A DNA stretch of 64,000 nucleotides from a virus, in IMG/VR virus record IMGVR_UViG_3300043540_000321, positions 131,212 to 195,211 of that record; one strand, 5' to 3'. How positions within the stretch are numbered: position 1 is the first letter of the stretch; every line of letters begins with the position of its first letter. The notes under the pieces are model-generated. The model ran no database searches and had not been told where the DNA came from. It was given only the letters and a program-made list of their open reading frames with translations. This document shows, one piece after another, positions 6,515-60,980 of this stretch. Both the position numbers and the translations under genes were made by a program.

Positions 6515-7072
6515 ATGGATGACGCTAGAAATTTATTCAGCCCAGCTCTCACATTTGCCCAAAAGGAATTTGCTGAGATATTCCTCGACTATATGGTGGC
6601 AGACACCTGGTCGAAGCTCATTTATTTAGAGGCGGAATACAGAAAGGAGGTCACCCGTAGAATTTCTAAGTCACCCGATGCAGATATTCAAAGGCTCCAG
6701 CTCGGTCTACAGCAGATGGCAAACAGCCGAGAGATACGCCCACCCTATGAGGAGCCAGGAGGGCTCAGTGCCCATAAGATATTCTCCAGGATAGCTGTAG
6801 TAAGTGAATACCCACTCCCCTACGAAGGCGATAGGGAATGGGCATTAAAGCAGATGAGAGAGATTAAGGAGCGGGTTGGTCTCGAAGACCATGCCATAAT
6901 CCAGAAGATTTCCCTGAACCAGACCGAGCTCGGCAGACTATTTGAAGTAGGGGGAGACCTGTACTTCCGATCGTTTATTTGCTGGCAGGAGGGGTGTGAG
7001 GGATACGACCACGATTGTATTCGAGAGCGGATAGATTGGCTGAATGAGGCTGGATTACTGGCTGAGCGTTAG
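6515..7072 (+). CDS. Hypothetical protein (185 aa)
   Basis: AGAGG SD, open ORF. Confidence 0.65.
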   Translation: MDDARNLFSPALTFAQKEFAEIFLDYMVADTWSKLIYLEAEYRKEVTRRISKSPDADIQRLQLGLQQMANSREIRPPYEEPGGLSAHKIFSRIAVVSEYPLPYEGDREWALKQMREIKERVGLEDHAIIQKISLNQTELGRLFEVGGDLYFRSFICWQEGCEGYDHDCIRERIDWLNEAGLLAER

Positions 7073-7603
7073 CCTTTAGGGTCTCCCTTAAAGACACTCC
7101 ACAACCACTCAAGGAAACGACCAAATCCCTTCTCATCAAAGGGGCCGTCATCCAATGCGGGTGGTGGGACAGGCGTTACGTGTCTATCTTGATCTTTCTT
7201 GTCGAAGGCACAATGAACGACGGGGCCGAACCCTGTTGTAGTGTGTTGGAAAGTAGAGTCCGTTTCAAGGAATCTCTGGTTGAATTTTGTGACGCGCTCT
7301 CCACTTAGATACACATACTCCGCGCTTGTATTGAAAGCGACCTTCGTATTGGGGGCTACAGTGCCTATGTAGTGAGTCCAAATCAAAGTTCGAGTTAGAT
7401 TAAACCGGGAGTTTGGAAAGGCAGAGGGTCCAAACGAGGTAACAACCGGAATGATGGCTCCATCGTTGATAGTGAGTGCGGCATGAACTTTATTTGCTCC
7501 TCTGGAGAAGTAAAGGTCGTAATTCTGAGAATGAGGTGCGTTTGGGTTTAAGAAAATAGTGGCACTTGCGGCTACCACGCCCTGAAGAGTAGACTTGTTG
7601 CTT
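7069..7603 (-). pseudogene. 5'-truncated member of the secreted two-Cys family
   Basis: Frame open to ~7603 (SNKSTLQGVVAAS...), where it meets the IS5 end; WTHYIGTVAPNTKV and GPVVHC resemble WMQQLGIITPGTQL and YPSVLC of 60252-60980. Confidence 0.6.
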
Positions 7604-8272
7604 TATAAGGTAGATTAATTTTATCTTCTGATAAGGTATCAGACTATGCTCAACCTTCATCGTGCGCTGGAAAATGACCGCCTGTTGAGGGCGTTAACTG
7701 GGCTGAATCGCAAAGCGTTTGACGAGTTGTGCGAGATCTTCGGTGCAGTCTATCAAGAGACACTCCAAAGCGATCTTAAACCACGAAAACGAGCTAGAGG
7801 CGGGGAGAGGAAAGCTCGGTTGGGGAGTATGGCAGCCAAACTATTCTTCATCTTGTTCTATTTCAAGTGTTACCCGACGTTCGATGTTTTAAGCTTCCTG
7901 TTTGATTTAGAACGGGGCCGAGCGAATCGGTGGATGCATCGTCTACAAAGGATTCTGGAAACAGCTCTGGGTAAGAAGATGGTGTTACCCGAACGGAAAC
8001 TCGAAAGTATTGAGCAGTTTCTAGAACGGTTTCCAGCGGTGAGGGAGGTGATTTTGGGTGGGACAGAACGTCCCGTGCAGCGTCCCAAAGATACCGAGAA
8101 ACAGAAGCAGCATTACTCTGGCAAGAAGAAACGGCATACTCGCAAGCACATCACGGGTAGCACGCGAACCAAGCGAGTGATTATCCTGACCCCAGCCAGA
8201 GCTGGGAAGATGCATGATAAGCGGCAACTGGATGAAGCAGATTTGGTGGGCCTGGTGTGCGATCAATGTTAA
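7604..8272 (+). mobile_element. Truncated IS5-family (DDE_Tnp_4 type) transposase remnant
   Basis: ORF 7646-8272 has LFFILFYFKCYPTFD (HTH) and TERPVQRP...YSGKKKRHT; first catalytic Asp appears as Gly (VILGGTERP); sequence diverges after DEADLVG; left boundary approximate. Confidence 0.85.
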
Positions 8273-8285
8273 CTGAGAGGACTCG

Positions 8286-10295
8286 ATGAGAATTTCAGAC
8301 CCAGCCGAAACCAACGAAGCATTTTACACTCTACAGAAGGCTGTGGAGCAAAGAAACTTTCTAGTCGCATTGATCGAAGGGAAGTATCAAGCGTATTGTC
8401 TCCTACGGGCGGAAGCACAAACCACAGAGGAATTCCTTATCCTCCTGGGTGCTAATCTAGTCCTGGAACGTTTACTGGAAGAGATCGGCAAGGGCCATCT
8501 GTGTGACCCTGAGTTCGTCGAACCGAGTCTTCTAAAGAAAGCCCGCTTGCCCTATTTCTTTGGTAATGAGTATGACTATGCCCTCGGAGAAGATAACAGC
8601 GACGGCTGAAAATTTAATTCAGCATTCGATTGAGTTCGTCTACAAAGGAATGGTCATTAAAGGGGAGATCCTGACCCGTTTGCGCCCAGACACGGCCACT
8701 CTGGAGCAACCTTACCTGAGAGTAAATGGGCGGAACCCTGTGCTGATTCCATACAGTCTTCAGATGACAGCGGTTAAAATCATCTCTGCGCAGCGAATGG
8801 ACGATGAATACAATAAGCTGTGCGAAAAACTTTTTCGAGGTTGTTTATTTCCATAGAGGGAAAGAAATATGAACTTTAAGGCACGTTTCCTAACGACGTT
8901 AGCCTGCCTCCTACTCGGGTTTGCTGGGTTTGCTACAGCAGGCGGTAAGAGGTTCGCCAGCAACCTTTCCGCTGTGTTAATCGGAGTTGGAGTTGGGATG
9001 ACCCTGAACGAAGCCTTCCGGCGAGAGGACGAAGTTTTTGGGGATGAGAATGATGACAGTCGTTTTTACTAAATATGCCGCAGAGTTAAGGACAGATATC
9101 AAGCAGCGGACTCGACTCTGCGGTATTAAGAACAATACCTATGGGTCGGGGCTAAACCTTATAGCCAAGATGGTGGCGCTGGCAAAGACCGACTTCCCTT
9201 TCCTCATTGACGGAGACTTCTGGGTAGTGTCTTATGACGGCGACCGCTGGAAGAGGCAAACTGGTATCGAATTTGAAGTACCCACTGAATGTCCACTGCC
9301 TAAGGATTACCAAGTGTGCGATCGCCTGGAGTATATCTTCGCTGGGAATAAATCTTGATCGATTGATGGAGCAAGTATGAAGCCAACGCAAATATTTTAC
9401 ACAGGAGTAGTTATAATAGTCCTGGGGATTGCTGGAGCCTTTGGGGGTCTCTGTACCGGGAGTAAAGGGCTGTCGCTCTTTAGCCTTTTCGGTCTAGCCT
9501 TCGGAGGAGGAGTGATGACGGCTGGAGTTTTAGCATCGGCGAAACCTGACAATGACCTCTACTAACACAAAACGAAGAACCGACCACTGGTGGGAGTTCT
9601 CTCACGATTTAATAAAAACTCACGCTTTTCCAGGCGTAGTTGAAAATGTCAATTTGCGATGGCAGTCCCCCAGCTCCGGACGGGATATCGATATGATACC
9701 GCTCGGTAACGACCTGGCCCTCATCCTGCCGATCGGACTGAACGATACGGAGGAAGACCCAGAGCTGGATCAGGCTCTAATAAACGCAGAGAGGATAGAA
9801 GCCCATTGGAGGAGTTACTGTGAGGAAAACGGACTTCCTACTTCTAAGGTAAGTACGAATGTTGAAAGTATCCTGTCTCTTGTCTACCCATTTGTCGATC
9901 GCATTGCGGGCAGTACTGTTCCTTACGTCATCACCTTTAACCAGAACGACCTGACTGAGTATTTTACAGCTCAGATAAAGGAGCGGGACTGGGAGTTTAT
10001 TAAGCAAAAGGCCCTCTCCAATACTGAAGAAGTCTGTGGAGAGCCCGACTTGAGAGAGGGGTCTGCATTCCTTGGTTCAGTGATGAGCCTTACGCCCAGT
10101 GGCAAGGTGTATATGCCCTGGTCTTCTAATGTGACCCATGAGGAAGCCTGGATTGACTCTGTTTGGTGGGAGGCCTTGGAGAGTGTCGCCGAACAGTATG
10201 GGATGTATGTGGGGTGTGGTGAAGAGTGTGCGAGTGATGTGTTCGCGTTTATAGAGGTCAAAGTCGAGGAGGACGCTGATGACGACGACCGTTAG
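8286..10295 (+). other. Run of hypothetical genes
   Basis: Overlapping or coupled ORFs 8286-8609, 8560-8856, 8869-9072 (TM), 9038-9358, 9377-9565 (TM) and 9552-10295 (acidic). Confidence 0.65.
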
Positions 10296-10819: not shown

Positions 10820-10865
10820 TAATCAACCGGAGGTGCTCGAGGAGTGCCAACCTATAACATAAAGA

Positions 10866-10936
10866 TGCCCCCAATAGGAATTGAACCTATGTAGACCCTT
10901 TTAAGGAGGGTTGCATAACCACTATGCTATGGGAGC
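10866..10936 (-). tRNA. tRNA-like gene with anticodon UUA (ochre suppressor-type or pseudo-tRNA)
   Basis: GCTCCCA-TA-GCAT-AGTGGTT-ATGC-A-ACCCT-CCTTAAA-AGGGT-CTAC-ATAGG-TTCAATT-CCTAT-TGGGGGC-A; complete cloverleaf with U8/A14, G15/C48, G18G19 and TTC; C33 is atypical; CCA not encoded. Confidence 0.85.
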
Positions 10937-10976
10937 AAGTTAATAGAGTGTTCATCCATTTTAACGAGAGGACATT

Positions 10977-25891: not shown

Positions 25892-28800
25892 TTGCAACCC
25901 TACACCCAACGACGACCTATGTACGACCTCCGTTACGTCGATGTTATAAACCCGATCTACCTGACAAAGGAATTCTTAGAGCCCTACGCAGCAAAGGAAC
26001 CTCCCTTCGCAAATGCCGTCGCCCTCATCACAGCGATGAGAACTTACCTTCGCTTCGTCGACGAGTTCGGGCGGCGGGAGAAGTGGTGGGAGATGTGTCT
26101 CCGAGTTACGGAGTACAGCCTGTCTCTATACCGTGGACCCGCCTCGTTTGAAGAACTGAAGAAGGAGGCTGAGGAGTTCTTCGATCACATCTTCAACCTG
26201 AAGATATTTCCTGCCGGCAGAACGATGTGGATTGGCGGAACGAAAGTTACCGACACCGACGGAACGAGCAACATGAATTGCAGCTTCAGAGTGATAGACT
26301 CTCTCGATGCCTATTCGGAGATGCTCTACCTATCTCTCTGTGGGTCTGGAACCGGGTTTTCTGTAGAACGACGATACGTTGATAAATTACCCAAGTTGAT
26401 TGTTCCTGAGGTAATCCACCAACCGTACAACCCTAAACCAAAGGACAAGCGGTACGAGAACACGATCGTTAAGGTTGGGACGAAGGAGTTCTCTCTTCGA
26501 ACTCCTTATCTAATTAATAAATTTGACAGTTGCCTGGAGCGTCATGCCGACTCTGTCTCTGCCTTCGAGGCATCCATCACCGTCGGGGATAGCAAAGTCG
26601 GCTGGGCTGTAGCCGTCAAGGCTCTTTTAAGACTGCTGACTTGTTATTCCATCAAGCAGATCATCATTAACTACGACAGCATTCGAAGGGCTGGCGAGAG
26701 GTTGATGACGTTCGGCGGGCGAGCGTCTGGGCCCGACCCTCTCCGTTGGTCGATCGGGCGCGTGATGGAAATTATTAAAGCGTGTGACGGAAGGTTGAGT
26801 TCGAGGGATGCGATGGATATCTCCAACATCCTCGGGTTCGCTGTCGTATCGGGTGGCGTCCGGCGCACCGCTCAGATTACCCTGGGAGACATAGACGATG
26901 TGGACTTCATCACGGCCAAGTATGGGCTGTGGGATGAGAAAAACCACCCCGAGCTGAAGATATTCCAGGAAACGAGATCGCTCAGCAACAACTCCGTCCA
27001 TGTGTGGAAGAAGCCACCGCTGAAACAACTTAAGGATATTCTTGCTCGCGCTCGGTACAACGGCGAGCCCGGATTCTACATCGCAGAAAACGCGCTGAAG
27101 CGTCATCCTAGATACAAGGGTACTAACCCATGTGGAGAGATCTTGCTGGACTCTTCTCAAACTTGTAACTTGTGTGAGGTAGTCGTTTCAGCCTTTGTCA
27201 AGAACGGTCGCTTCCAGTACAAAGAGTTCGAGTACGCTCTGCGTTTAGCCACTCGCCACGGCAGCCGAATTACTAATATTCAGATGTGGCATCCCGATTG
27301 GGATGTCATCCAAAAACGCGATCGCCTGCTCGGTGTCTCTCTAACCGGACAGGTTGACGCTTGGCAGATGTTGGGCTGGGCGTATCAGATTAATGAAAGT
27401 GGATCCTACACCCACGGCACAGACGAGCGCGTCCAGGATGTGCTTCACCTGGCGAAGCAAGCTGTTCGAACGGAGGCTGATAGCTATCATGCCGAGATGG
27501 GCATCCCTCAGTCGTTGTTAACAACATGCGTCAAACCCAGTGGTTGTAGACCCTGGAATGCTTTAACGACAACAGACCAAGGGGTATTAACTTTGGAGGA
27601 GTTGTTGGAGAAGCACCCAGACGATAAGGTTTGGGGTGATATGGAGGGGTACAGAGCAGTAAATGAGGGAGTGCTGAGCAAAATTACCAAGTCATATAAT
27701 AACGGAGTCGAAACTGTACACGACATACAGCTCTCTCTAGGGTTTAGACTTCAGTCAACCGGAAATCACCGCTGGTTTGTGAAAGAACGAGTAGTGCGTT
27801 CGGCAAACTCTAAGAGACGATTGGTACGATTGGTAGATGTGCATCAGTGGGTCGAAACTAAAGACCTTCAACCAGGAGATGTAATAGAAGTTCGGCCGAA
27901 CACCTACAACAAAGTTGAAGAGGCCCCTCTACAGAGAGTAAATAAGCTTGCTTTTTCTATGCGGAACGATGCAACGCCTATCCTCCAACCAGACCGAATG
28001 AACCCAGAACTCGGCTGGTTGTTAGGGTACCTCTGGGGAAATGGAGCCATGTCTCAGGGTGGATATAGAATCCGGTTTGTGGACGAGCTGCAAACCAAGT
28101 TAGAAAAGGTCGAACAGATATTGAGAAGTCAATTTGGTATTGACAGCTCTGTTCGAAAGTTAAATGACCGCAAGGCATTTTCTTTAGAGGTGGGTAGCAA
28201 ACATCTATGGCACTGGCTGATAAAGAACGAGGTATGGAAGTACTATGCTGATGGGTTGGACATTATTCCAAAAATAGTGCGCTCTTCATCGAGGGAAACT
28301 ATTATTGCGTTCATTGCTGGTCTAGTTGACTCGGATGGATGGGTAGGTTACTCGAGAAAAGAACAACAGGTAAAAACTGTAGTCTTGTCGAGCGCGTACG
28401 ACCTATTTGCAGAACATCTTCAGCATGTAGCTCTATCTGTGGGTTTGTGTATCGGAAGGTCGCTAAACTCAAAGGGAGATAACCTACAGGAACAAAAACA
28501 TATCTGGTTGATGGGGTTCAACCAATATTCCGATTCAGAAAGTTTTGAAATTCTTTCAAAACACTCTCTGAAGATTCAATCCATCTACCATTTACCTGGT
28601 AGATGGGTTCATGAAAACCCTGCCCGGAATACTAAACCTCTAGGAGAGGTTATATCGATACAAGAAAGTGGCGAAATGCCTACCTTCGATATCGAAGTCG
28701 AAAACACTCACTGGTACTATGCCGGAGCGTTTAAGAGTCATAACACCGTTAGCCTGGTCGCTGGCTGTAGCTCGGGTGCTCATATGGGATATGCCCCCTA

Positions 28801-29338
28801 CTACATCCGTCGGATGCAGATTGATCGTCATGACCCTCTCGCTCATGCACTTCTGTCCAAGGGTCTGAACCCCCGTCCAAAGAACAACCAGGGCGACGAC
28901 CTCTACGGAGAAGGCGTAACAACCTGGGTGTTCGACTTCCCCATGACTTCCAACACTCCTATCCGAGCGATCGACGAGCCCGCGGTTTCGCAACTCGAAC
29001 GGTATAAAGAGTTGATGCGACTGTACGTGGAACATAACGTCAGCTTCACCTGTTCAGTCGACGACCACGAATGGGATACAGTTGCGGAGTGGGTTTACAA
29101 GAACTGGGATGACATTGTGGGGATAGCCTTCTTCCCTAAATTCGATCCTACGATCGGCACGCCAAACCCAGACCTCGCCTATATCCCCTGTAGTAAAGAG
29201 GCCTACCAGGAACTGGCGGCGACCATGCCTCAGTTTACCGAATCAGAACTGAACGACCTGGTCGCTCAGTTCGAGACGGAATATGAGGAGTACAGCCTGG
29301 ATTCAGAGTGCTCCACCGGAGCTTGCCCAGTTCGTTAA
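25892..29338 (+). CDS. nrdJ: Class II (adenosylcobalamin-dependent, monomeric RTPR-type) ribonucleotide reductase containing an intein
   Basis: FPAGRTMW, NCSF, GSGTGFSV, VVSGGVRRTAQI, TNPCGEILL...CNL, TCVKPSG|TVSLVAG, C-terminal ECSTGACPVR. Confidence 0.95.
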   Translation: MQPYTQRRPMYDLRYVDVINPIYLTKEFLEPYAAKEPPFANAVALITAMRTYLRFVDEFGRREKWWEMCLRVTEYSLSLYRGPASFEELKKEAEEFFDHIFNLKIFPAGRTMWIGGTKVTDTDGTSNMNCSFRVIDSLDAYSEMLYLSLCGSGTGFSVERRYVDKLPKLIVPEVIHQPYNPKPKDKRYENTIVKVGTKEFSLRTPYLINKFDSCLERHADSVSAFEASITVGDSKVGWAVAVKALLRLLTCYSIKQIIINYDSIRRAGERLMTFGGRASGPDPLRWSIGRVMEIIKACDGRLSSRDAMDISNILGFAVVSGGVRRTAQITLGDIDDVDFITAKYGLWDEKNHPELKIFQETRSLSNNSVHVWKKPPLKQLKDILARARYNGEPGFYIAENALKRHPRYKGTNPCGEILLDSSQTCNLCEVVVSAFVKNGRFQYKEFEYALRLATRHGSRITNIQMWHPDWDVIQKRDRLLGVSLTGQVDAWQMLGWAYQINESGSYTHGTDERVQDVLHLAKQAVRTEADSYHAEMGIPQSLLTTCVKPSGCRPWNALTTTDQGVLTLEELLEKHPDDKVWGDMEGYRAVNEGVLSKITKSYNNGVETVHDIQLSLGFRLQSTGNHRWFVKERVVRSANSKRRLVRLVDVHQWVETKDLQPGDVIEVRPNTYNKVEEAPLQRVNKLAFSMRNDATPILQPDRMNPELGWLLGYLWGNGAMSQGGYRIRFVDELQTKLEKVEQILRSQFGIDSSVRKLNDRKAFSLEVGSKHLWHWLIKNEVWKYYADGLDIIPKIVRSSSRETIIAFIAGLVDSDGWVGYSRKEQQVKTVVLSSAYDLFAEHLQHVALSVGLCIGRSLNSKGDNLQEQKHIWLMGFNQYSDSESFEILSKHSLKIQSIYHLPGRWVHENPARNTKPLGEVISIQESGEMPTFDIEVENTHWYYAGAFKSHNTVSLVAGCSSGAHMGYAPYYIRRMQIDRHDPLAHALLSKGLNPRPKNNQGDDLYGEGVTTWVFDFPMTSNTPIRAIDEPAVSQLERYKELMRLYVEHNVSFTCSVDDHEWDTVAEWVYKNWDDIVGIAFFPKFDPTIGTPNPDLAYIPCSKEAYQELAATMPQFTESELNDLVAQFETEYEEYSLDSECSTGACPVR
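27545..28744 (+). mobile_element. 400-aa intein with LAGLIDADG endonuclease domain
   Basis: Inserted in KPSG/T; begins Cys (CRPWNAL), ends KSHN, +1 Thr; LLGYLWGNG and FIAGLVDSDG motifs. Confidence 0.95.
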
Positions 29339-43948: not shown

Positions 43949-44320
43949 ATGCTCCCAATCCTCTTAGCTCTCCAACTCGCACAGACCCCAGTAACTCCAG
44001 TCATTACTCCTGTGGACCCTACGCCGGTTCTTTCTACAGGCCCAGTACCACTTGTTACACCTGCTCCAACACCTTTTCCTCTCACAGATACACCCGTTAT
44101 TCCTTCTACGACAACTTCTTGTGTCAGTCCAGGAGAGATACTTTACCCTCGTCAAGATTGGACGCCCGGACAGTCTCTCTTAGAGGCCCCTGTCTGCCTT
44201 CCAACACAAAAGCGATCGAAGGAGGACCCGGTTGACCTCTATCTTAGGATTCGAAATGAAACTCCAAGTGTTTGTCAGACCTCTCCTCTGCCTATTTGTC
44301 ATCCTGTCAGTTCTCACTAG
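43949..44320 (+). CDS. Pro/Thr-rich secreted protein
   Basis: MLPILLALQLAQTPVTPV..., low-complexity, three to four Cys. Confidence 0.55.
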   Translation: MLPILLALQLAQTPVTPVITPVDPTPVLSTGPVPLVTPAPTPFPLTDTPVIPSTTTSCVSPGEILYPRQDWTPGQSLLEAPVCLPTQKRSKEDPVDLYLRIRNETPSVCQTSPLPICHPVSSH

Positions 44321-44909
44321 TCCGTACGCGGCTATTGCCGGAAATGCCGACCTGAATGGAACACTTAGTACCACTAACTTATTTGTAGGGTCAGCGCAAA
44401 TTGGAAGGATGAGTTGTGAAAATCTCTTTTTTGTCGACTCTACCCTCAAAAATTATGTCCCCAAGTCCCAGGCGGCATACATCGTTAGATTAGGAACGAT
44501 ATCTATTAGAGGCAACTCGAGCTTAACCGCCTATACTGACCCTGAAACTAATATCTTTGGAGTCTCTGTCAATGACCCAAGGGTTAAGAAGGACTCTTCA
44601 GTTGCTGACCCGTCTGCGGAAGAGCTAGATAGAAAGCTTCAGGCGTATGTCTCGACAATAAGTCTATTGGGTGCTCAGAAGTTACCTGAGTCGGAAGCAC
44701 CAACGATCAAATTGAAAGCCTTTTATAAAGACGCTAGGAACAACATCTACCCGATCTCTATCTATCAGGGAGTAACTCCTCCAGACGGGGTTTCAACTCT
44801 TTCCTGCCCGATAGGAGACCCTCCTGATGGGGGACACAAGCCCGGACCCAGTCTTCCTACTGACTGGCCGACGTACAGATCTCAGAGGTTCAATTACGTC
44901 TTCAACTGA
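44256..44909 (+). CDS. Secreted two-Cys family protein
   Basis: Signal peptide ...PYAAIA; IGRMSC and STLSC are the only mature Cys; terminator at 44963-44991. Confidence 0.7.
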   Translation: MKLQVFVRPLLCLFVILSVLTSPYAAIAGNADLNGTLSTTNLFVGSAQIGRMSCENLFFVDSTLKNYVPKSQAAYIVRLGTISIRGNSSLTAYTDPETNIFGVSVNDPRVKKDSSVADPSAEELDRKLQAYVSTISLLGAQKLPESEAPTIKLKAFYKDARNNIYPISIYQGVTPPDGVSTLSCPIGDPPDGGHKPGPSLPTDWPTYRSQRFNYVFN

Positions 44910-45199
44910 TTTTGTCCTTTCATCAGGAGACTTATATCGCCTGAGAAGATAGTCAGCTAACTCCCGCGAGCTAGTGTCTCGCGGGTTTTTTAATGTAATT
45001 TCTAGTCTAAAATCGACATCTATGAATCTTATCCTCCACTCATAGAGGCAGACATCCATGAACAATCGACTCCTCACCCAAATTATTAAAACGATCGCAC
45101 TATGCCCTGTGTCGGAACTCCGATCTCTGGGAACAAAGGTTCGCCTGGAGTTCTTTCTACACGGCGTCACAAACAGAGTTAACCTCGAAGAAAACTATC

Positions 45200-50248: not shown

Positions 50249-50841
50249 ATGACCAGAAAAATTGATAGACGCGCCGTTGAACTTCTTTGCGTCGACCCTT
50301 TGATCACAAAAGTTAATGGTGAGCTTTATGTGGGGTTAAGAGAAAGTTTCTTGACCGACTATAGAGAGGTACCTCCAACCTCTTACGAGGTGGAGTTCTT
50401 GCCAGGAGAACTCCCTCCAAACAGGAACCGGCTAAACACTCTGGTTCCTTGGCAGTATCGAGACCTCAATATCCTCTGGCCCTCAGTACCCATTCAGTAG
50501 CGTCGACATATATGAAGTCTAGAGTCTACCGTCTCTTATTAGAAGCCCTTAGACGTTACTGCCAGTTCCACTCGGGTGAGCCTCTCACCCAGGCGTGGAC
50601 AGGATTAGGCACCCTCACTGAGTATAAATCAGTTCTGGATGAGGGATATATGCAGCCCGCCCTCCTGATGGGCCAGTACAACGCTGGCCCGCACAGACCG
50701 AGGGAGAACAGTTGGTTCAGGTTAACCGAGAAGGGAGCCGAGATCGTCCAGAGTTGGATGGACCAGGGGTTCACCCACGAGGATATCCTCGACTTTTATT
50801 TCTCTCGTAGTAGCAACCTTCCGCCCATACCCAGACCATGA
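50249..50841 (+). other. Two hypothetical genes
   Basis: ORFs 50249-50500 and ~50512-50841. Confidence 0.6.
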
Positions 50842-51371
50842 ACTATTCCACTAAAACCTATCCAAGGGCGTACTTCGCCGATTTAGATGCCTATAATGCC
50901 GGTCGCTTAAAAGGAGTCTGGATAGACTTCTATGATCACATCACTCCGGATGAGGTGATGGAGCAGGTAGAAGAGATGCTCGGCCCCGATGGCGAAGAGT
51001 GGGCTATCCACGATAGCGAAGGGTTCGGCGACCTGGTGTCTGAATACATGGCGATCGACTTACTCTGTGACATTGCAGAGCTGATCAACCAGCGGGGAGA
51101 GGATGCCGTCGTTGGATTTATAAACCACAGTGGGGTTGAATACCTCTCTGAGTTTGAGAATTGTTACGTTGGAGAGTACGAATCGGAAGAGGAGTTTGTT
51201 GAAGAACACTTCTCCGAGTTGTTAGACAAGGCTCTCGACATTGAGTTCCCCTGGGGGAGTCGACTCTTCTCTTACGTGGACTTGCAAGCGATCGCCAATG
51301 ATTGTTTCTGCGGCGATTACTGGAGCTACGAGCCGCATTACGGCCAGTGCCATGTTTACATCAGTAGCTAA
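50838..51371 (+). CDS. ardA: Antirestriction protein ArdA
   Basis: AYFADLDAYNAGRLKGVWID...EEWAIHDSEGF; acidic composition. Confidence 0.9.
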   Translation: MNYSTKTYPRAYFADLDAYNAGRLKGVWIDFYDHITPDEVMEQVEEMLGPDGEEWAIHDSEGFGDLVSEYMAIDLLCDIAELINQRGEDAVVGFINHSGVEYLSEFENCYVGEYESEEEFVEEHFSELLDKALDIEFPWGSRLFSYVDLQAIANDCFCGDYWSYEPHYGQCHVYISS

Positions 51372-52045: not shown

Positions 52046-52104
52046 TAGCTACTGGTTTCCATTACATAGGAGATGACCTTTCCAGGCATCTCCTATGTCT
52101 TTTT

Positions 52105-52686
52105 TTGAAGAAAATTCTGATTCTATTTCTGCTCGGCGTTTTAGTATTTCTTCCAGTCCAGTCTGCTCAGGCTGGAAAAACCCCGCTGTGGTACGTGACG
52201 GATTCAAGTGATGAGTACTCGTCCTTGCCTCAAGGGTATTTAACCTGTTACAGACAACCGCCTTTCTTCACCTCTTCTAAAGTCACTCTGCACTTAGACC
52301 GATATGTTAACGGCGGGCACACGGAGCTTCAAAAAGTTTACGCCGGCGTTTACGTGGCTCCATATGGTGGAATAACGTACTTCGACAAACATCCTCCACA
52401 GTTCGGGGGATATCAGAGCAGTCGAAATATAGGCAGTGGGATACTCGTGGCATTTCAAGTTCGGATGCCTGTAGACACCAAGCAAAGAAATGTTCTCACG
52501 ACAGACAAGGGTTACAACCCTATCAAGGGAAGACTGTACCCGGGACAGATCTCGTTAGATGTTCCCGCTGTAAACTGCGAGGGGATATTATACGATAGGG
52601 TGCCAGTTACCGTCAAAAATCCCGTTCAGAAGATGGAAGCGCCTGTTGAAGCGCCCGAGCCACCTATTTCTGTTCCTGTACCTTAA
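52105..52686 (+). CDS. Secreted two-Cys family protein
   Basis: Signal peptide ...QSAQA; QGYLTC and VPAVNC are the only Cys. Confidence 0.7.
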   Translation: MKKILILFLLGVLVFLPVQSAQAGKTPLWYVTDSSDEYSSLPQGYLTCYRQPPFFTSSKVTLHLDRYVNGGHTELQKVYAGVYVAPYGGITYFDKHPPQFGGYQSSRNIGSGILVAFQVRMPVDTKQRNVLTTDKGYNPIKGRLYPGQISLDVPAVNCEGILYDRVPVTVKNPVQKMEAPVEAPEPPISVPVP

Positions 52687-52694
52687 GACTAACC

Positions 52695-53231
52695 ATGCTA
52701 ACACTCAGCCCTTCCGAGCCAGTGCCGCCTTACCTCGAGCTAAAACTGGTTCGGAAGTTTTTTGAAGATGGAAAGACCGCAATAGTAGAGGATGTGGTGC
52801 CGAGAAAACTCTCAACGGCTGAGAGGTTCCTATATGAACATCGCCAGCGAGTCGAGGGACCAGTTTACTATCCGACCAACACACACGGGGAGTTTCTTAT
52901 CAGTCGGAAAAAGACCCTCTTTCTATGCGAAGTACCTCCGACCGACTACGACTTTGTTATAGAGTTCCTTATTACAGCCGACCTGGCTGTGATGGACGCG
53001 GACTCTTTCAAAGTCCTCCGCTGTTTATTAAATGTGTCGTCTGCTCAAGAAGCATTTGACCGACTAGAAGAGTTCCCAGGCTACAAGGGAGTTTACTACA
53101 AGGCAAGGAGTGGAAAGACTTTGGTCGCGTTGAGTCCCAAAGTCGACTTAGATTTTACGCCTTCTTATCGAGAGTACCTTAATGGAAGTGCTCAGTTCCT
53201 GCCCGAAACGGCCTTCGCGAACTATCATTAG
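52695..53231 (+). CDS. Hypothetical protein
   Basis: 178-aa ORF convergent with the Dps-like gene. Confidence 0.65.
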   Translation: MLTLSPSEPVPPYLELKLVRKFFEDGKTAIVEDVVPRKLSTAERFLYEHRQRVEGPVYYPTNTHGEFLISRKKTLFLCEVPPTDYDFVIEFLITADLAVMDADSFKVLRCLLNVSSAQEAFDRLEEFPGYKGVYYKARSGKTLVALSPKVDLDFTPSYREYLNGSAQFLPETAFANYH

Positions 53232-53740
53232 CTCGCTTTAGATGCAAACGAGGTGCTGAGTTGAGAGTGCAGAAGATATAACCACGACTCAACCAGCACC
53301 ATCAGGTCTCCAATCAAGGTGTTCGTCCCTAAGAGTTCAGGCTCTCTCGATAGCCGAGCCACTTCAATTAAATTATCATGGAGGGCGACTGCGTCTACCA
53401 TCACCAGCCTCATGTAGGAGATCCCTTTACTCGGTTTTGGAATCGTCGCTCCCTGGGCAAACGCTTCGGCATCGTCTGGTAGTTTGATACCGTAGCATCC
53501 CCGGATGTGCTCTCCCAACCCATCAATCTCTTCACCCGCCTCGTTATAAATTCGCTCCAGTAAGAGATGGGCGGTAAAGAATTCCTGCCCAGGCTCGCTC
53601 GTAATGTTGCGGTGCGCGGACTGGGTGATCGCATAGAACTGCTGCCAGTTGCAGTAGAGATTTATTAAAAACTTCTCCAGCTCCGGGCGAGGCTCGCTCA
53701 GAACAATTAGCTGGTCATCTTTAATTACAAATCGGTTCAT
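53228..53740 (-). CDS. dps: Dps/ferritin-like protein
   Basis: AHRNITS...FFTAHLLLERIY...IDGLGEHIRG matches the Dps H-W-N...F..LH..FE..Y...D..AER pattern. Confidence 0.75.
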   Translation of the reverse strand: MNRFVIKDDQLIVLSEPRPELEKFLINLYCNWQQFYAITQSAHRNITSEPGQEFFTAHLLLERIYNEAGEEIDGLGEHIRGCYGIKLPDDAEAFAQGATIPKPSKGISYMRLVMVDAVALHDNLIEVARLSREPELLGTNTLIGDLMVLVESWLYLLHSQLSTSFASKAS

Positions 53741-54105: not shown

Positions 54106-55509
54106 TCATGCTCCCCTCCGCTCAATCAAGGACTGAGGGTTCCCCGGCTCACCAGCTAACGCCAGTGATAACTCCAAGGGCGTACTTTTACCCAGTTTTA
54201 CGGGGACTCCGCATACTGCATCTAACGAAATACCAAGCTCCATCATGCCTCTAAGCCTGAGATTAGATGAGGCGTTTGTGTCTGCGTCATCTAACTTGCC
54301 GCAGCTTTCACAGAGGAACTTTTCATCCTCCCGATTGGTGGGGCTAACAAAGTGACAGTCTGAGCATTCCTGAGACGATTGGTATGGGTTGGTACTCCAG
54401 ACGAGATTGCCTGACTTTGCAGCCACAGCCATCGACTTCTGTTTAAGTTCGCCCCATGCCGCATCTAGGATCGCCTTGTTCAGACCAGCTTTCGCCGCCT
54501 GACCATTGCCAATAAAGTTGCCCTTTTCATCCTGTTTCGGTTTGCACCGCTTCACCATCCCTTTGATATTGAGATCCTCAAAAATCAAACATTGCGCCTG
54601 ACGATTGAGCTTGTTAGCAACCTTCCACTGGTAATCCGTGCGTCGTTGCTCTACCGTCTGGTCTAATCGCGCTAACCGTTGATAGGCTTTGCGTCGATTG
54701 TTTGACCCTTTCACCTTGCGACTGGCACGACGCTGCCGAATACGTTTACGTCGCTCTACTTGTTGAGCAAAGCGAGGATTAGCAATCATCTCGCCCGTAC
54801 TCAGTGCTGCCAGCTTGCGAACGCCCACATCGACTCCTAAGACGGTTTTCACTTCGCTCGGTTGCAGGGTTGGGATAGTGGGTACATCTTTGTTTTCCAG
54901 TCTCACTGACATATACCAGCCATCGACTTTACGCCTGACTGTGACCGTTCGCACGGTATACCCTTCAGGTATCGGGCGGGATCTGAAAAAACACGTCCAC
55001 CCGATACCAGGTAAGTACGCTCGGTTGCCGTTGAGCTTGGCAACGCCAGGGGGATAGCTGAAGGAGCGAAAGTGGCTGCGACGCTTGAAAGCAGGATAAC
55101 CACGCCCATGCTCAAAAAAGTTCTTGAAGGCTGTATCTAGCTGTCTGAGGGTTTGCTGCGTCGCCTGAGCATTGACCCGTTTATACCAGGGACGCGATTC
55201 CTTCATGTCCAGCAGTGAGGCACATTGCATCTCAAACGCACTACGCCGCTTGTGGTTGCCGTCTCTGTCTACCTTCCAGGGGTAAGCGTGACTGGCAGAT
55301 TTGCTCACAGAGCAGGTTAAAGGACAGCACTCACCTTGATTATCGAGGCGACAAAAATCACCCATGACCGGGGCCTTAACCTGTTCGTATGCCTCCATTC
55401 GCTCTCTGAGTGCGAAGTTGTACAGCCCACGCAGCATATCGAGCCAGTCACTCATTGTTTGTGACTGGCGGGGAGAAGGCTTGAGTTTATAGCAATACGC
55501 GGTTAGCAT
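54106..55509 (-). CDS. tnpB: TnpB RNA-guided nuclease
   Basis: Start MLTAYCYKLKP (55509); GVDVG, FEDLNI, DADTNA; intact CSDC/CESC zinc finger. Confidence 0.95.
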   Translation of the reverse strand: MLTAYCYKLKPSPRQSQTMSDWLDMLRGLYNFALRERMEAYEQVKAPVMGDFCRLDNQGECCPLTCSVSKSASHAYPWKVDRDGNHKRRSAFEMQCASLLDMKESRPWYKRVNAQATQQTLRQLDTAFKNFFEHGRGYPAFKRRSHFRSFSYPPGVAKLNGNRAYLPGIGWTCFFRSRPIPEGYTVRTVTVRRKVDGWYMSVRLENKDVPTIPTLQPSEVKTVLGVDVGVRKLAALSTGEMIANPRFAQQVERRKRIRQRRASRKVKGSNNRRKAYQRLARLDQTVEQRRTDYQWKVANKLNRQAQCLIFEDLNIKGMVKRCKPKQDEKGNFIGNGQAAKAGLNKAILDAAWGELKQKSMAVAAKSGNLVWSTNPYQSSQECSDCHFVSPTNREDEKFLCESCGKLDDADTNASSNLRLRGMMELGISLDAVCGVPVKLGKSTPLELSLALAGEPGNPQSLIERRGA

Positions 55510-55537
55510 GGAACCATTATAGCCATTTAGCCCTACC

Positions 55538-55936
55538 ATGCGTAAGTATTCTGGTGGAACTGTTTCAGACTTAAGGATGCACTTAGTCCTAGTAACAAAA
55601 TATCGTCGTAAAGTCATCACAAAAACCGTACTGGAACGCTTGCATGAACTCATTGCGGCTACTTGTGCAAAATGGGACTGCGAGTTGCAGCAGTTCAATG
55701 GCGAACGCAACCATGTGCATCTGCTGATTGAATACACACCCAAAATGGAAATCTCAAAGTTTGCCAACAACCTCAAAACCGTGAGCAGTCGGCTCATCCG
55801 CAAAGAGTTCCCGGCGGTCAAAGACGCATTCAGAAAGGATGTTTTCTGGAAGGTTGGGTACTACGTCGGCTCTTGTGGTGAGGCATCATTAGAAGCTGTG
55901 AAGCGCTATATCGAACAGCAAGACCCTCCCGACTAA
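55538..55936 (+). CDS. tnpA: IS200-type Y1 transposase TnpA
   Basis: HLVLVTKYRR, NHVHLL, FWKVGYY, YIEQQ. Confidence 0.95.
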   Translation: MRKYSGGTVSDLRMHLVLVTKYRRKVITKTVLERLHELIAATCAKWDCELQQFNGERNHVHLLIEYTPKMEISKFANNLKTVSSRLIRKEFPAVKDAFRKDVFWKVGYYVGSCGEASLEAVKRYIEQQDPPD

Positions 55937-56204: not shown

Positions 56205-56219
56205 TGATCCTCTCAACCG

Positions 56220-56242: not shown

Positions 56243-56258
56243 CGCCTACTTTTAAGTT

Positions 56259-56516
56259 ATGTCTTCAGATGAAATTAAGGGAGATAAATTTGTGGCAGTA
56301 TTAAAAGTTAGGAGAGTGGGCAACTCCCTCGGAGTAACTTTGCCTCAAGAAGTTATTGGGAAATTGAATGTGAGTGAAGGCGACAACCTCTATGTGGTTG
56401 AGACGCCTACCGGACTTGAGATGTCTCCTCTTGACCCAGACTTTGAAGCTTCCATGCAGGCTTATGAACGAACAGAGAAGAAGTTTCGGAACGCCTTTCG
56501 TGAGTTAGCCAAATGA
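56259..56516 (+). CDS. AbrB/MazE-fold antitoxin
   Basis: LKVRRVGNSLGVTLPQE...GDNLYV. Confidence 0.9.
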   Translation: MSSDEIKGDKFVAVLKVRRVGNSLGVTLPQEVIGKLNVSEGDNLYVVETPTGLEMSPLDPDFEASMQAYERTEKKFRNAFRELAK

Positions 56517-56917
56517 AAGAGCCTGCTTGGCTATCTGAAAAGTCGGTCAGAGAGATTCACTGCCGACTCATCCATCGTTTTGGTGGAGAGCAAGGTTTGT
56601 TGGACGAGGGTCGATTCAAAGCGACCCTTGCAAAGCCTATCAATCTTTACGTCTACGGCGAGGATGTTGGGCTATTCGACCTGGCGGCTGCCTACGGCTA
56701 CGGATTTATCAAAAACCACTGCTTCATAGACGGGAACAAGAGGATAGCCGTTGCCTGTATTGATGTGTTCTTACAGAAGAACGGCTGGGAATTAGTAGCA
56801 GAAGAGCCTGCAGTTGTTCTCTACTTTCTGGAACTGGCGGCATCATCAGGCTCGTCTGAAGAACAACAGAATGCCTTGGCTCAGTGGATTAAGACTCACG
56901 CCCAGAAGCTTAGCTAG
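56513..56917 (+). CDS. doc: Doc/Fic-family toxin
   Basis: HCFIDGNKRIA Fic motif; ATGA coupling to the antitoxin. Confidence 0.92.
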   Translation: MKEPAWLSEKSVREIHCRLIHRFGGEQGLLDEGRFKATLAKPINLYVYGEDVGLFDLAAAYGYGFIKNHCFIDGNKRIAVACIDVFLQKNGWELVAEEPAVVLYFLELAASSGSSEEQQNALAQWIKTHAQKLS

Positions 56918-57185
56918 TCTTCCTTCTTCTCTTGATCGGAGGAGCGATCGCTGAAACTATCGCCCTTCAAAAAGGCACAGATGAGGAACGCCATCCCAAT
57001 CACCAGGGGAATCGTCAGAGCAGCGAGGATGTAAGCGAGGATTGTACCTATTGTGAACAGCATAAAAATGGAGGAGAACCTGTCTCCTCCATTTCAACGT
57101 GCAGATGTGGTCGAAAAGTTTGCGCTAGAACCAGAGCCTTGTTATAACTAGATCGCGCCTTTCTCTATCCTAAGTAGACAAGAAA

Positions 57186-57824
57186 TTGTTAGAACTGGAA
57201 TTCCTATTTTCAGCCTTTTACTTCCATTCAGGAGTATCCCTGAGGACTGAAGATATTATTGAGATTATCGATGATAGAGCGTCTGTTTGCGTCCAGACTG
57301 CGTGGCAATCACTCAGACTTACTCTCAGCAGCTCTTATAAGATGAGAAAGTTTCTGCATGAGTTAGAGCCTTCTAACGAAATGCTCGAAGAAATTGAGGA
57401 TTATGTTAATAAAAAGCAGCTAACCGATGATGCTGGACTAAATCTACAAGAAGAGTTAAAGGATTTTACACAGAGACTCAAGAAGCATTATCTTTGGGGG
57501 CGATCGGAGCGGAACAAGGGTATTCATCGAGAGCTAAATCAATTTATAGTTCAGCATTGTCCAGTAAACTCACTTTTATACGACACTCGCCATAACAGCA
57601 AATGTCAGGAGATCTTACGGAGTAAGAATCTACCTTTCTTTAGCGGGTTCAATATAGTGTCTGTTCCAGGACCAGAGGTAAGAGTCTACAAATTTGTAGA
57701 CTCTTACCCTGAAATGTATCTGGTGGTTCATCCTTCGTTCTTTGAACCTTCTGCCTTTACAGAAGAGAGCGTTGAGAACATGAGGAGGTCTTTAGACTCA
57801 TCGAGCCTGATTATTTCTGATTAA
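57186..57824 (+). CDS. Hypothetical protein
   Basis: 212-aa ORF; true start uncertain. Confidence 0.55.
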   Translation: MLELEFLFSAFYFHSGVSLRTEDIIEIIDDRASVCVQTAWQSLRLTLSSSYKMRKFLHELEPSNEMLEEIEDYVNKKQLTDDAGLNLQEELKDFTQRLKKHYLWGRSERNKGIHRELNQFIVQHCPVNSLLYDTRHNSKCQEILRSKNLPFFSGFNIVSVPGPEVRVYKFVDSYPEMYLVVHPSFFEPSAFTEESVENMRRSLDSSSLIISD

Positions 57825-58654
57825 GGAGCTGGGCAGACATCCAAGAGAATGCACGCTGCTCCGCCAAGACCCTCTCCTGCTGCCTCTATCCCAAACAAAA
57901 ACCAGCCTGGGGCTTTTTCAGCCAGGACATCGGCGGTTAACTGTCCTGCATAAGTCAAAGGAATTGGAGAACCTGTCTGTAGTGAAAGACCTGTAGCAAT
58001 AGCCAAGTCCTTCGTATACTTACTGTCGGTAGCGTTACCAAAGGCAAACTCTTCTTGTTGTTTGAGCTTCGGATAACAGGTGACTGTTGGGACTGAACCT
58101 ACCACAGGCACGAAGTTATCATTAATGACTTGACCAACTACGATATCTGCGTTTCTTGTAACCAACCCACTCTTTTGAAACTGATGGGTGTCAATAAGAT
58201 TAACAATTGAGTCTAGAGTTGCTTGGGTCGGGACGGCTATAGGATTAGGACTTTTAGCTCTAACGCGCACTTCGGTAGTCAACGGTTTATCAAAACCAGG
58301 AAACTCCTGGAGGCGACCCTCACCGCCGGTTATAGGTAACTCTTGACCCCCCAACTTCACAACAGCAGATATAGACTCTATACCTATACCTATCTGTTTG
58401 AGGTGGTTTTTAACCTCAACGCTTACAAATACCGTGGGTATATTGTCTTTGCTTACTGAGCACTGCATAGTGCCCTCTGTCCAAGGTATATAGAAACCCC
58501 CAGGACCGGTTGGAACATGTGGATCGTACTCGACGATGGTGATGTCTGGCATAGCAGAAGACGCATCATAGGCCCAGGCTGGCTTTGAATTCGAAACAAT
58601 CCCAGCTACTAGAAGCAAGCAGGATAGGATACTCGCTATTATTCTTTTGAACAT
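57821..58654 (-). CDS. Secreted two-Cys family protein with hydrophobic Gly/Ala C-terminal tail
   Basis: Signal ...KPAWA; EGTMQC and VPTVTC separated by 127 aa; tail ...GEGLGGAACILLDVC. Confidence 0.75.
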   Translation of the reverse strand: MFKRIIASILSCLLLVAGIVSNSKPAWAYDASSAMPDITIVEYDPHVPTGPGGFYIPWTEGTMQCSVSKDNIPTVFVSVEVKNHLKQIGIGIESISAVVKLGGQELPITGGEGRLQEFPGFDKPLTTEVRVRAKSPNPIAVPTQATLDSIVNLIDTHQFQKSGLVTRNADIVVGQVINDNFVPVVGSVPTVTCYPKLKQQEEFAFGNATDSKYTKDLAIATGLSLQTGSPIPLTYAGQLTADVLAEKAPGWFLFGIEAAGEGLGGAACILLDVCPAP

Positions 58655-58899
58655 TCAATAACTCCTTAAAGCTTCAACCTAATTAGAAGGCAAGGTCCTA
58701 CGCGAAAAATGCGCGTCGATTCCAATGAAAAAAGGGAGTGAATAATCACTCCCTTTCCAAATGTTTTCTAGATGGCTAAAGTCCGATGGAAGACTGCGCT
58801 CTGACTGTTTAGTCGTTTCGACTTTATGAAAGATGAACAGATACTGGATATCAGCGTCAGCTAACGTGATGGAGACTATTCAACAACCTCAAAAAAAAT

Positions 58900-59526
58900 A
58901 TGATAACCAAACTTAAAGCGTTACTTGTGGCATGTTTTGCTGTGGTAGTGTTTCTAGTTGGAATGACTCCAGCACTCGCTCAAAACAGTGCAGCGAGAAC
59001 TCACATCTATGCGTTTATACCAGGGTCTAGTCCAGAAGAAACAGGCGCATGGGTAGCTGAGGGAGATATTACCTGCTTACCGAGTCACGGTTGGGGGTTA
59101 GGACACCTATATAAAGCAACCCTTCTTGGGTTTAACACGGCAGAGGTAAGAGGTACGATGAGGGGTTATGAATATACCCCAGGCCATTACGAAAAGTTCA
59201 GTGAGTTTTATATAGACCTTCAGCCTGACTACTCAAAGCTTCCTCTACACTTCGCCTGGCCCGGTAATTCACCCAGTGTGCTTCGATACAACTGGCATCT
59301 ACTAAACACTCAACAAGGTAAAGGTTATAATATGACAACTCTACCAGGTCTTCCCAAAGATCAAGCTGGGAGTTCATCGTTTGCTTTATCTGTTCAGCTC
59401 GCCCAAGTCGCTCCTTTGATCCTGGAGAACAGCTATTTATTCACAAATAATGTCGGAGCTGTTCCAATCGGTGATCGTAATGGAAGGACAAATTTCAAAT
59501 TGTCTTGCCAACTTTACTTTCCCTGA
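58900..59526 (+). CDS. Secreted two-Cys family protein
   Basis: Signal ...TPALA; EGDITC and FKLSC are the only mature Cys. Confidence 0.7.
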   Translation: MITKLKALLVACFAVVVFLVGMTPALAQNSAARTHIYAFIPGSSPEETGAWVAEGDITCLPSHGWGLGHLYKATLLGFNTAEVRGTMRGYEYTPGHYEKFSEFYIDLQPDYSKLPLHFAWPGNSPSVLRYNWHLLNTQQGKGYNMTTLPGLPKDQAGSSSFALSVQLAQVAPLILENSYLFTNNVGAVPIGDRNGRTNFKLSCQLYFP

Positions 59527-59529
59527 CCT

Positions 59530-59949
59530 ATGCCCTACCTTCTCTATCTCGATTCGGGACTAGACCTCTATATCCCTAATACCAACGTAATTCGGTTGAC
59601 TAAAGAGGTCTACACGATAGGAAGGGCACCAGAAAGAGACATAGTTGTAGATTGTATAGGAGTCTCTAGACTGCACTGTACGCTTCTCATGCAAGAAGGT
59701 AGTTACTTTTTAGTAGATGGAGATGGAACATCGAAGTCTAGCCTCAATGGCACCTCTATTCTCAGCAGAGCTGCAAAGGTATATTGCAGCTCTGCTGTTC
59801 CTTTAAGTGATAGAGACGTAATTATGCTCGGTGGTAAAGACTTTTTTGAGTACTTCGCAGATGACCTTACATTAGACGAGGGAGACGAAGGAACGGGAGT
59901 TCCAGCTCGTCTCCCTAGATATCCAGGTGGACTATCTACTGCATCTTAA
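59530..59949 (+). CDS. Stand-alone FHA domain protein
   Basis: IGRAPERDI...VSRLHC...SLNGT. Confidence 0.9.
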   Translation: MPYLLYLDSGLDLYIPNTNVIRLTKEVYTIGRAPERDIVVDCIGVSRLHCTLLMQEGSYFLVDGDGTSKSSLNGTSILSRAAKVYCSSAVPLSDRDVIMLGGKDFFEYFADDLTLDEGDEGTGVPARLPRYPGGLSTAS

Positions 59950-60178
59950 TCTGGTCGCCTGTAGGGTCAACCTTTGTCCTGAAGTCCTTGGCTGCAAGAC
60001 CAATACCTCCGACTCCTAGCCAGCAAGCATAGCGAGAGATCGATACAATCAGGCTGTCGGGACCTCCAAAGAACTGAGGGAAAGCGACAGCGAACCCAAA
60101 ACCAGCGGCAATGATACCGCTAATACTGGTCCGCCAGTTTTTGACGATCGCATCCTTTAGACTGTTAGACAAGCTCAT
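59936..60178 (-). CDS. Small holin-like membrane protein
   Basis: KNWRTSISGIIAA...GIGLAAKD two-TM pattern; start ATG 60178. Confidence 0.5.
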   Translation of the reverse strand: MSLSNSLKDAIVKNWRTSISGIIAAGFGFAVAFPQFFGGPDSLIVSISRYACWLGVGGIGLAAKDFRTKVDPTGDQIKMQ

Positions 60179-60251
60179 AGTTTTTGTAGAACGAGTAGCT
60201 ACTCTATTCAAGCTCGCTCTCAAGGTCGAAAAGTTCTCGCCTCGTTCGTAC

Positions 60252-60980
60252 CTAGAGCAGGGGATTCTTATCACCTAGAAGACTGCCTATCTGTTGAAGT
60301 GCCCAAATAGCACTGACACCTATTGGACCAACAATATTCGTGATACCGTTTGACACATTTGCCGCAAACTCCAGGAGCCAGGCAACTTTTTTCTGGATCT
60401 CTTTTGTGGTGGATAGGTCGTCATCATCGACATTGCAGAGCACTGATGGGTAGACGCTAGGAGTAAACCCTTCAGTGTACTCACGAAAGTGATGTGTGTA
60501 ATAAGCAGGAAAGTCTGGCTTGCTGAGTCCTAGTATGGTCACTGTGCCTAGAGCCGTTAACTGTGTTCCAGGCGTTATGATGCCAAGTTGCTGCATCCAA
60601 AACCAGGACCACCACACAGATTTCGTCTTGAAGTAGTCTGTACTCGACCCAGGATTCACCCGTCTCTCAAGACCTACGCCTTTTAAGCCAATCTTTGAAC
60701 CGCCAGACAGAATGAAAGTCACGTAGGCTCTGGTTATGTAGTACCTTGAAGGGCGGTAGATGTTTCGCACCCTGGTGTACATAAACGCCGTTGCCCAATT
60801 AGTCTGCGGGTTAACAATACACATCAACTGTCCGGCAACAACCTTGGTTCGGTTGCCATCAAGGTCATAGTTAACGTGTTCCGTCACTGGGAGGATAGAG
60901 GCGAAGGCGGGACTACTAAACTCAAACGACAAAACCCCTGTAAGAATAATGCAGAGGATGGATCGAAGAAGGACCTTCAT
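60252..60980 (-). CDS. Secreted two-Cys family protein with amphipathic C-terminal tail
   Basis: Signal ...SPAFA; AGQLMC and YPSVLC separated by 127 aa. Confidence 0.75.
   Translation of the reverse strand: MKVLLRSILCIILTGVLSFEFSSPAFASILPVTEHVNYDLDGNRTKVVAGQLMCIVNPQTNWATAFMYTRVRNIYRPSRYYITRAYVTFILSGGSKIGLKGVGLERRVNPGSSTDYFKTKSVWWSWFWMQQLGIITPGTQLTALGTVTILGLSKPDFPAYYTHHFREYTEGFTPSVYPSVLCNVDDDDLSTTKEIQKKVAWLLEFAANVSNGITNIVGPIGVSAIWALQQIGSLLGDKNPLL

Follow-up and report, generated by a model that had tools for sequence, protein, structure and literature searches.

Five genes for putatively exported orphan proteins with a common two-cysteine layout in the accessory arm of a large, probable cyanophage

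The IMG/VR virus record IMGVR_UViG_3300043540_000321 (195,211 bp, rated 100% complete) contains, in its last 64 kb, five intact open reading frames (ORFs) and one broken ORF whose products are laid out to a similar plan, with a signal peptide at the N-terminus and two widely spaced cysteines in the mature chain. The window discussed here is this whole stretch of 64,000 nucleotides (bases 131212–195211 of the record), and positions are those of the window unless the genome is named. The intact genes, referred to by their left-hand coordinates as 44256, 52105, 57821, 58900, and 60252, are located within 17 kb, three of them within 3.2 kb, in a mobile-element-rich, right-hand accessory arm; the sixth ORF, 7069, is a remnant interrupted by an insertion sequence (IS). 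The genes are real, the export signals are present, and both the cysteine layout and the similarity of the motifs around the cysteines exist. An earlier reading of the DNA letters (the original prediction) proposed that the six ORFs form a single, rapidly diversifying family. The explanation favored here, to which about an even chance is given, is that the five intact genes and the broken one encode orphan accessory proteins exported into the host envelope, a heterogeneous set sharing a design and not a demonstrable family. The proteins that cyanophages deliver to the envelope of their hosts are poorly known, and accessory proteins with export signals might serve in superinfection exclusion, receptor masking, or the control of lysis. 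On present evidence, the five are exported orphans that share a layout and make a short list for expression and localization tests in a cyanobacterial host; they do not constitute a new system.

The coordinates and Sec-type signal peptides proposed for the five ORFs agree with the translations and with the codon scores. Each precursor begins with a charged (basic) n-region, followed by a hydrophobic core of 12–16 residues and an A-x-A site (a slash marks the predicted cleavage below). The product of 44256 (44256–44909, plus strand) has 217 residues, a signal peptide ending AIA/G, Cys54 in GRMSC, Cys184 in STLSC, and a Pro/Gly-rich C-terminal tail of 33 residues; translation may instead start at TTG 44232, behind an AAGGAGG site, which would give a protein of 225 residues. 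The product of 52105 (52105–52686, plus strand), with 193 residues and a TTG start, has a signal peptide ending AQA/G, Cys48 in GYLTC, Cys158 in PAVNC, and a Pro-rich tail. The longest protein, encoded by 57821 (57821–58654, minus strand; 277 residues) behind an AAGGAG ribosome site, has the cleavage site AWA/Y, Cys65 in GTMQC, and Cys193 in PTVTC, and its tail of 84 residues closes with a mildly hydrophobic segment, rich in Gly and Ala, that contains two additional cysteines (268 and 274). The product of 58900 (58900–59526, plus strand; 208 residues; ALA/Q) is rich in aromatic residues, with Cys59 in GDITC and Cys203 in KLSC, the latter five residues short of a C-terminus that reads SCQLYFP. 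In the product of 60252 (60252–60980, minus strand; 242 residues; AFA/S), Cys54 is placed in GQLMC and Cys182 in PSVLC, and after Cys182 an acidic DDDD stretch is followed by a C-terminal helix that is strongly amphipathic. The original prediction described two or three of the tails as amphipathic or hydrophobic, which holds for 60252 and, mildly, for 57821; no tail is a true transmembrane segment, and KD19 values stay below the usual threshold of 1.6 in every C-terminal window. The coding test, a codon-usage log-odds model trained on the long genes of the phage and scored in all six frames, favored the annotated frame and disfavored the other five in all six ORFs, the remnant included. The lowest score of the set was obtained for 58900 (0.060), which fits atypical codon use.

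The likeness between the proteins is concentrated at the cysteines. As was predicted, the first mature cysteine is found in all five in a G-x-hydrophobic-x-C motif early in the mature chain, more precisely G-x-[MLI]-x-C located 21–37 residues past the cleavage site, and a second cysteine follows much later. The distance between the two is 130, 110, 128, 144, and 128 residues in 44256, 52105, 57821, 58900, and 60252; the identical spacing claimed for 57821 and 60252 is thus found, at 128 residues rather than the 127 first noted. Exactly two mature cysteines are present in four of the five proteins, 57821 with its tail cysteines being the exception. Around the second cysteine, when the remnant is included, Pro occupies position -4 in four of six sequences and Val or Leu position -2 in all six. 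In ungapped comparison with random cysteine contexts of the genome, the contexts of the first cysteine are more alike than expected (z 4.3, P=2e-4), and those of the second likewise (z 2.5, P=0.011). When the best ungapped block common to the proteins was sought without regard to cysteines, the motif of the first cysteine was returned at widths 6, 8, and 10; of these, only the block of width 6 exceeded all 40 shuffles (z 2.4). Two mature cysteines are also present in six further exported-looking proteins of the genome, spaced by just 7–37 residues; the pair as such is therefore ordinary, and the long span is particular to these five.

The strongest competitor of a heterogeneous set is that the five proteins and the remnant are a single hyper-divergent paralog family with one disulfide-stapled beta-sandwich, diversified in an arms race until the cysteine motifs alone remain. 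Such common descent of all five is, judged from the sequences, doubtful, and somewhat less so for the trio of 60252, 57821, and 7069. It would account for the motif at the first cysteine of every chain, for the similar context of the second and the uniformly long spacing, for the clustering of the genes, and for marginal signals between members of the trio. The mature chains, however, do not behave as relatives. As a positive control, an exported paralog pair encoded upstream of the window (genome 116727–117464 and 118319–118981), with two cysteines 29 residues apart in each, was used; no other exported proteins of the phage are clearly paralogous, and the pair is readily recovered by all of the methods described here (Smith-Waterman z 32, hhalign probability 98.3%). 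The all-against-all hhalign comparison suggested in the original prediction gave, by contrast, at most 0.3% for every claimed pair. BLAST among the six ORFs, in a database of these six sequences, gave a lowest E-value (E) of 0.33, and Smith-Waterman alignment of the mature chains a mean z of -0.15 within the set, compared with +0.5 for pairs including control exported proteins. In leave-one-out tests with hidden Markov models (HMMs), the omitted member came near the top only when the signal peptide was kept, and was lost wholly once it was removed. The sum-of-pairs score of a five-way MAFFT alignment lay at z 1.45 over shuffles, 10 of 150 of which were equal or better, and in a control in which subsets were reversed the true orientation ranked joint third of 16. 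The claim of a single homologous family is thus not borne out, since the mature chains stand at chance in each of these comparisons. It is also against one family that the motif block is significant at one width only and that members without relatives among billions of proteins reveal no wider family pool.

For the trio, homology had been described as well supported, and this wording is too strong. Despite their equal spacing, 57821 and 60252 show no ungapped similarity between the cysteines (z -0.18), and a weak signal is confined to their N-terminal half (P=0.047). Ungapped alignments anchored on the second cysteine gave z 2.1 (P=0.027) for 7069 against 60252 and z 1.8 (P=0.04) for 7069 against 57821. 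Combined, these marginal signals are suggestive yet post hoc, and 60252, 57821, and the 7069 remnant may be at most very old paralogs.

That 7069 is truncated by an IS and retains the second cysteine (GPVVHC), as originally proposed, is supported by alignment of the IS. The open frame at 7069–7602 (minus strand) comprises 177 codons with this single cysteine. When the IS is aligned with intact copies from cyanobacteria, its left inverted repeat, TAGACTTGTTGC, falls near 7590, so the first four to five codons of the frame are IS sequence and the ORF is truncated at its 5' end. The remnant proper spans 7069–7589, lacks about 50 N-terminal residues, corresponding roughly to the signal peptide and the region of the first cysteine, and scores 0.156 in the coding test in its true frame. 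It contains the sequence FLNPNAP and may be distantly paralogous to 60252 and 57821. The IS fragment that interrupts the ORF (7590–8255, plus strand) encodes a DDE transposase and is itself truncated at its 3' end near 8255.

By sequence searches all five proteins are orphans. For 44256, 52105, 57821, 58900, and 60252, no significant match was found in Pfam (E≤1), PHROGs, NCBIfam, PADLOC, or the sequences of the PDB; the PADLOC HMMs gave no match at E≤1 for the six ORFs and the two operon partners of 60252 described below. The homolog search proposed at the outset brought only self-matches or matches at chance level. A word-indexed search of 5.8 billion clustered proteins retrieved each of the five proteins itself and nothing else, as did an exhaustive phmmer search of 1.84 billion representatives with 60252. 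There was no match to 60252 or 57821 in six-frame searches of the phages Ma-LMM01, MaMV-DH01, and My-WqHQDG, nor to 58900 in five cyanobacterial genomes carrying the same IS. When 301 cyanobacterial genomes were searched with each of 57821, 58900, 44256, and 52105, a single match at E 0.004 was obtained, which equals the chance expectation. At the nucleotide level, a blastn search of positions 57000–61600 against 50,697 phage records gave no match. The neighborhood is similarly isolated: seven of the ten neighboring genes looked up are present in the protein collection, all as singleton clusters at 90% identity.

Structure prediction is of limited help, as there are no relatives from which alignments could be built and the AlphaFold models are consequently of low confidence. 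The model of 57821 from its single sequence has a predicted local distance difference test score (pLDDT) of 35.7. The domain of 60252, modeled with a six-row family alignment, reaches pLDDT 46.6 and is all-beta with seven long strands. A Foldseek search of this model against the PDB and BFVD returned nothing at E≤0.001 and only background-level beta-sandwich rows, and the best VIA match in the PDB (Z 8.2) was to the ApaG and adaptin-ear sandwiches, which are the usual background for unmatched models. The ESM Atlas model of 60252 (pLDDT 0.47) is likewise nearest to sandwich folds, including LEA_2 and TMEM106B. Together these low-confidence models suggest a generic beta-sandwich for 60252. The LEA_2/WHy family (PF03168), which includes exported cyanobacterial forms, plant LEA14 (1XO8), and the luminal domain of TMEM106B (8B7D), was considered because 57821, 60252, and the remnant carry a V-x-V-x-N-like or NPN-like strand, in the first two located after the first cysteine and in the remnant given by FLNPNAP. 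Its members are exported beta-sandwiches of about 160–190 residues, as is predicted for the proteins described here, and LEA_2 or TMEM106B is listed among the weak neighbors by both models of 60252. However, 1XO8 and 8B7D appear as weak rows only (Foldseek E 0.4–0.5, VIA Z 6.8, TM 0.3), which is background for a low-confidence model. At the level of sequence, an LEA_2 identity was rejected: a search of the whole phage genome with the PF03168 model was empty at E≤10, and hhalign against ten cyanobacterial LEA_2 proteins gave at most 1.8%, no better than control proteins.

Immunoglobulin (Ig) V domains are beta-sandwiches with a single disulfide between strands B and F, a Gly and alternating hydrophobic residues before the first cysteine, and a cysteine spacing of about 55–75 residues. 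The resemblance to the proteins of the set lies in the sandwich with one disulfide, here predicted (from a model of pLDDT 47), and in the residues preceding the first cysteine. The spacing of 110–144 residues is different, and no Ig-family Pfam match was found for the five ORFs.

A further alternative assumes that the proteins are unrelated and differ in fold, the likeness having come from export biology and from the selection made by the earlier reader; 58900 could then be a small outer-membrane beta-barrel similar to Lom of bacteriophage lambda. Exported proteins commonly carry one cysteine pair, and cysteines at strand ends have alternating hydrophobic neighbors. This alternative agrees with the lack of a homology signal in the tests described above, with the presence of exactly two mature cysteines in other exported proteins of the genome, with C-terminal tails that all differ, and with the Atlas model of 58900 (pLDDT 0.31), whose nearest models are barrels of the Ail/Lom type (TM 0.35–0.38), while 60252 is nearest to sandwiches. 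On the other hand, the recurrence of the motif at the first cysteine is not readily ascribed to chance (P about 2e-4 when anchored and about 0.01–0.02 when unanchored), and by our own calculation random placement would give the long spacing in all five with a probability of about 1e-4. Both Atlas models are, moreover, of very low confidence. An Ail/Lom-type outer-membrane barrel is not supported by the sequence of 58900, which has no Pfam outer-membrane-protein match and ends in Pro rather than in an aromatic residue. Unrelated proteins are, taken together, quite improbable.

Several points also weigh against the explanation favored here, an orphan set of common design. The Gly four residues before the first cysteine is invariant in all five proteins, and together with the collinear motif and the clustering within 17 kb it exceeds what a generic design would give, so that common ancestry is possible. 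The disulfide and the fold are putative, and both AlphaFold models are below pLDDT 50. The signal peptides and export were called by rule-based reading of the translations. Finally, 52105 lacks a ribosome-binding site, and its TTG start directly abuts a strong terminator hairpin (52064–52098; -21.7 kcal/mol, z -6.4) with its U-run.

If the proteins are exported as we infer, with a disulfide, a beta-sandwich fold, and a function in the envelope, then the following course may be proposed. Each precursor would carry a cleavable Sec signal peptide, which signal peptidase I would remove after A-x-A. The beta-rich mature chain of about 130–180 residues would fold in the oxidizing periplasm or possibly in the thylakoid lumen, where a host thiol oxidase would join the two cysteines in one long-range disulfide. 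This bond would tie together two strands, G-x-hydrophobic-x-C toward the N-terminus and [P]-x-V/L-x-C toward the C-terminus, and the distinct C-terminal tails, Pro-rich, amphipathic helical, or Gly/Ala-rich, might give each protein its own location or partner. A more far-reaching proposal is that a hyper-divergent family of exported beta-sandwiches, specific to phages and stapled by a disulfide, has so far been sampled in the five genes and the remnant alone; its members, with their varied effector tails, would together remodel the cyanobacterial envelope against competing phages. We consider it improbable. If it is true, then the G-x-hydrophobic-x-C and P-x-V-x-C strands would be the last conserved trace of the fold, and if the five proved to have one fold, they would make a compact case of extreme diversification inside a single genome.

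A role at the host envelope would fit the genomic context. Since the genes are located in a mobile-element-rich accessory arm beside counter-defense and signaling genes, the proteins would most likely act at the host envelope during the lytic cycle, where they might, for instance, block secondary phages or modulate lysis. Superinfection exclusion, receptor masking, and antagonism fit this context and are guesses. For phage moron proteins such as Lom and Bor of lambda, Llp of T5, and Imm and Sp of T4, changes to the host envelope and the exclusion of other phages are known or suspected. These proteins, like the outer-membrane proteins of large phages, are likewise small, carry N-terminal export signals, and are encoded outside the structural and replication modules. 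However, no sequence relation to them was found with Pfam, PHROGs, or PADLOC, and neither a lipobox of the Llp/Bor type nor a barrel signature of the Lom type is present; in the phage discussed here, no integrase or resolvase was detected, and the function of the five proteins is predicted only. Genes for envelope proteins with a possible part in the exclusion of other phages are reported from large phages (bioRxiv 10.64898/2026.10.24.761521). Lipoprotein exclusion factors of the Llp, Cor, or Bor type and unimolecular spanins were rejected as identities of the proteins, which have no lipobox and no C-terminal transmembrane segment. Where a cysteine occurs at residues 10–12, it sits within the h-region, and 12–16 hydrophobic residues and then the A-x-A site follow downstream.

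The transcriptional arrangement of the genes is varied. Most of them had been placed in separate cassettes bounded by terminators, and this stands in part: a terminator is found downstream of 44256 (44963–44985) and another, the hairpin already mentioned, upstream of 52105, whereas 58900 and 60252 belong to operons and 57821 has no terminator. When the upstream regions were compared, no 8-mer was common to more than two. An FHA-domain protein is encoded in the same orientation as 58900 and begins 4 nt after it (59530–59949, plus strand; Pfam FHA, E 2.9e-12). The gene 60252 is the middle one of a three-gene operon on the minus strand. Upstream of it, a Lys/Ala-rich protein of 203 residues with no family match is encoded (60980–61591, minus strand), 33% of whose residues are charged, with a net charge of +7 (residues 29–203 scored). 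Its stop codon overlaps the start codon of 60252 (TAATG), so the two genes are probably translationally coupled. The downstream gene (59936–60178, minus strand) encodes a membrane protein of 80 residues with two transmembrane segments that matches phrog_29636 (E 4.3e-6), a phage family without assigned function; read from GTG 60274, a longer frame extends into the 3' end of 60252. A tblastn search with this membrane protein against the same 50,697 phage records gave no match. Its position directly downstream of 60252 may be noted together with its holin-like size and topology.

The antiholin RI of phage T4 is small and helical. Made with a cleavable signal peptide, it works in the periplasm, where a small membrane protein is its target (PMC8385771), and the pairing of 60252 with a two-transmembrane protein in one operon is reminiscent of this; there is, however, no sequence similarity between RI and 60252, no holin was identified in the phage, and no more than one of the five proteins is concerned. 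That 60252 and its partners control lysis, with 60252 as an exported antiholin-like or spanin-like protein working together with the downstream membrane protein, is very improbable: although the operon ends in a phage-family membrane protein and in 60252 a signal peptide and a predicted beta domain are combined with an amphipathic helix at the C-terminus, the function of phrog_29636 is not assigned, there is no adjacent endolysin gene, 60252 does not fit a unimolecular spanin since it lacks both a lipobox and a true transmembrane segment at its C-terminus (KD19 maximum about 1.1), and four of the five proteins would be left aside.

Other genes of the accessory arm give it the character of a region of mobile and counter-defense elements. 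The antirestriction protein ArdA is encoded at 50838–51371 (plus strand; Pfam, E 7e-24), and a protein similar to Dps or to starvation-inducible DNA-binding proteins at 53228–53740 (minus strand; phrog_3636, E 9.6e-10). An element with the IS200 transposase TnpA and TnpB occupies 54106–55936, and a MazE-type antitoxin and a Fic/Doc toxin, with overlapping stop and start codons, are encoded at 56259–56917 (plus strand; E 5.8e-8 and 1.1e-15). This MazE/Doc pair is carried by a phage that appears lytic. In addition to the free FHA protein described above, the arm holds an FHA-cyclase.

As to the identity of the phage, its portal-like protein is only 25–28% identical to the portals of Microcoleus phage My-WqHQDG and of the Microcystis Ma-LMM01 group, and the relatives of the IS transposase are nearly all cyanobacterial; the virus is therefore probably a large cyanophage with distant known kin only. 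A search of IMG/VR for close relatives gave none for 60252, 57821, and the polymerase-like 34109 gene, nor for a gene of 933 codons in the virion gene block (genome 84384–87185). The IS transposase is 83% identical to a copy in Chamaesiphon and 77–79% identical to copies in Stenomitos and other cyanobacteria, and its identity to the Chamaesiphon copy is a clue to the host lineage. Two further features of the window may be mentioned. A transfer RNA with the anticodon TTA (ochre suppressor) was identified by ARAGORN at 10864–10937 (minus strand), and a gene for a B12-dependent ribonucleotide reductase at 25892–29338 (plus strand) is interrupted, according to Pfam hits, by an intein with a LAGLIDADG homing endonuclease.

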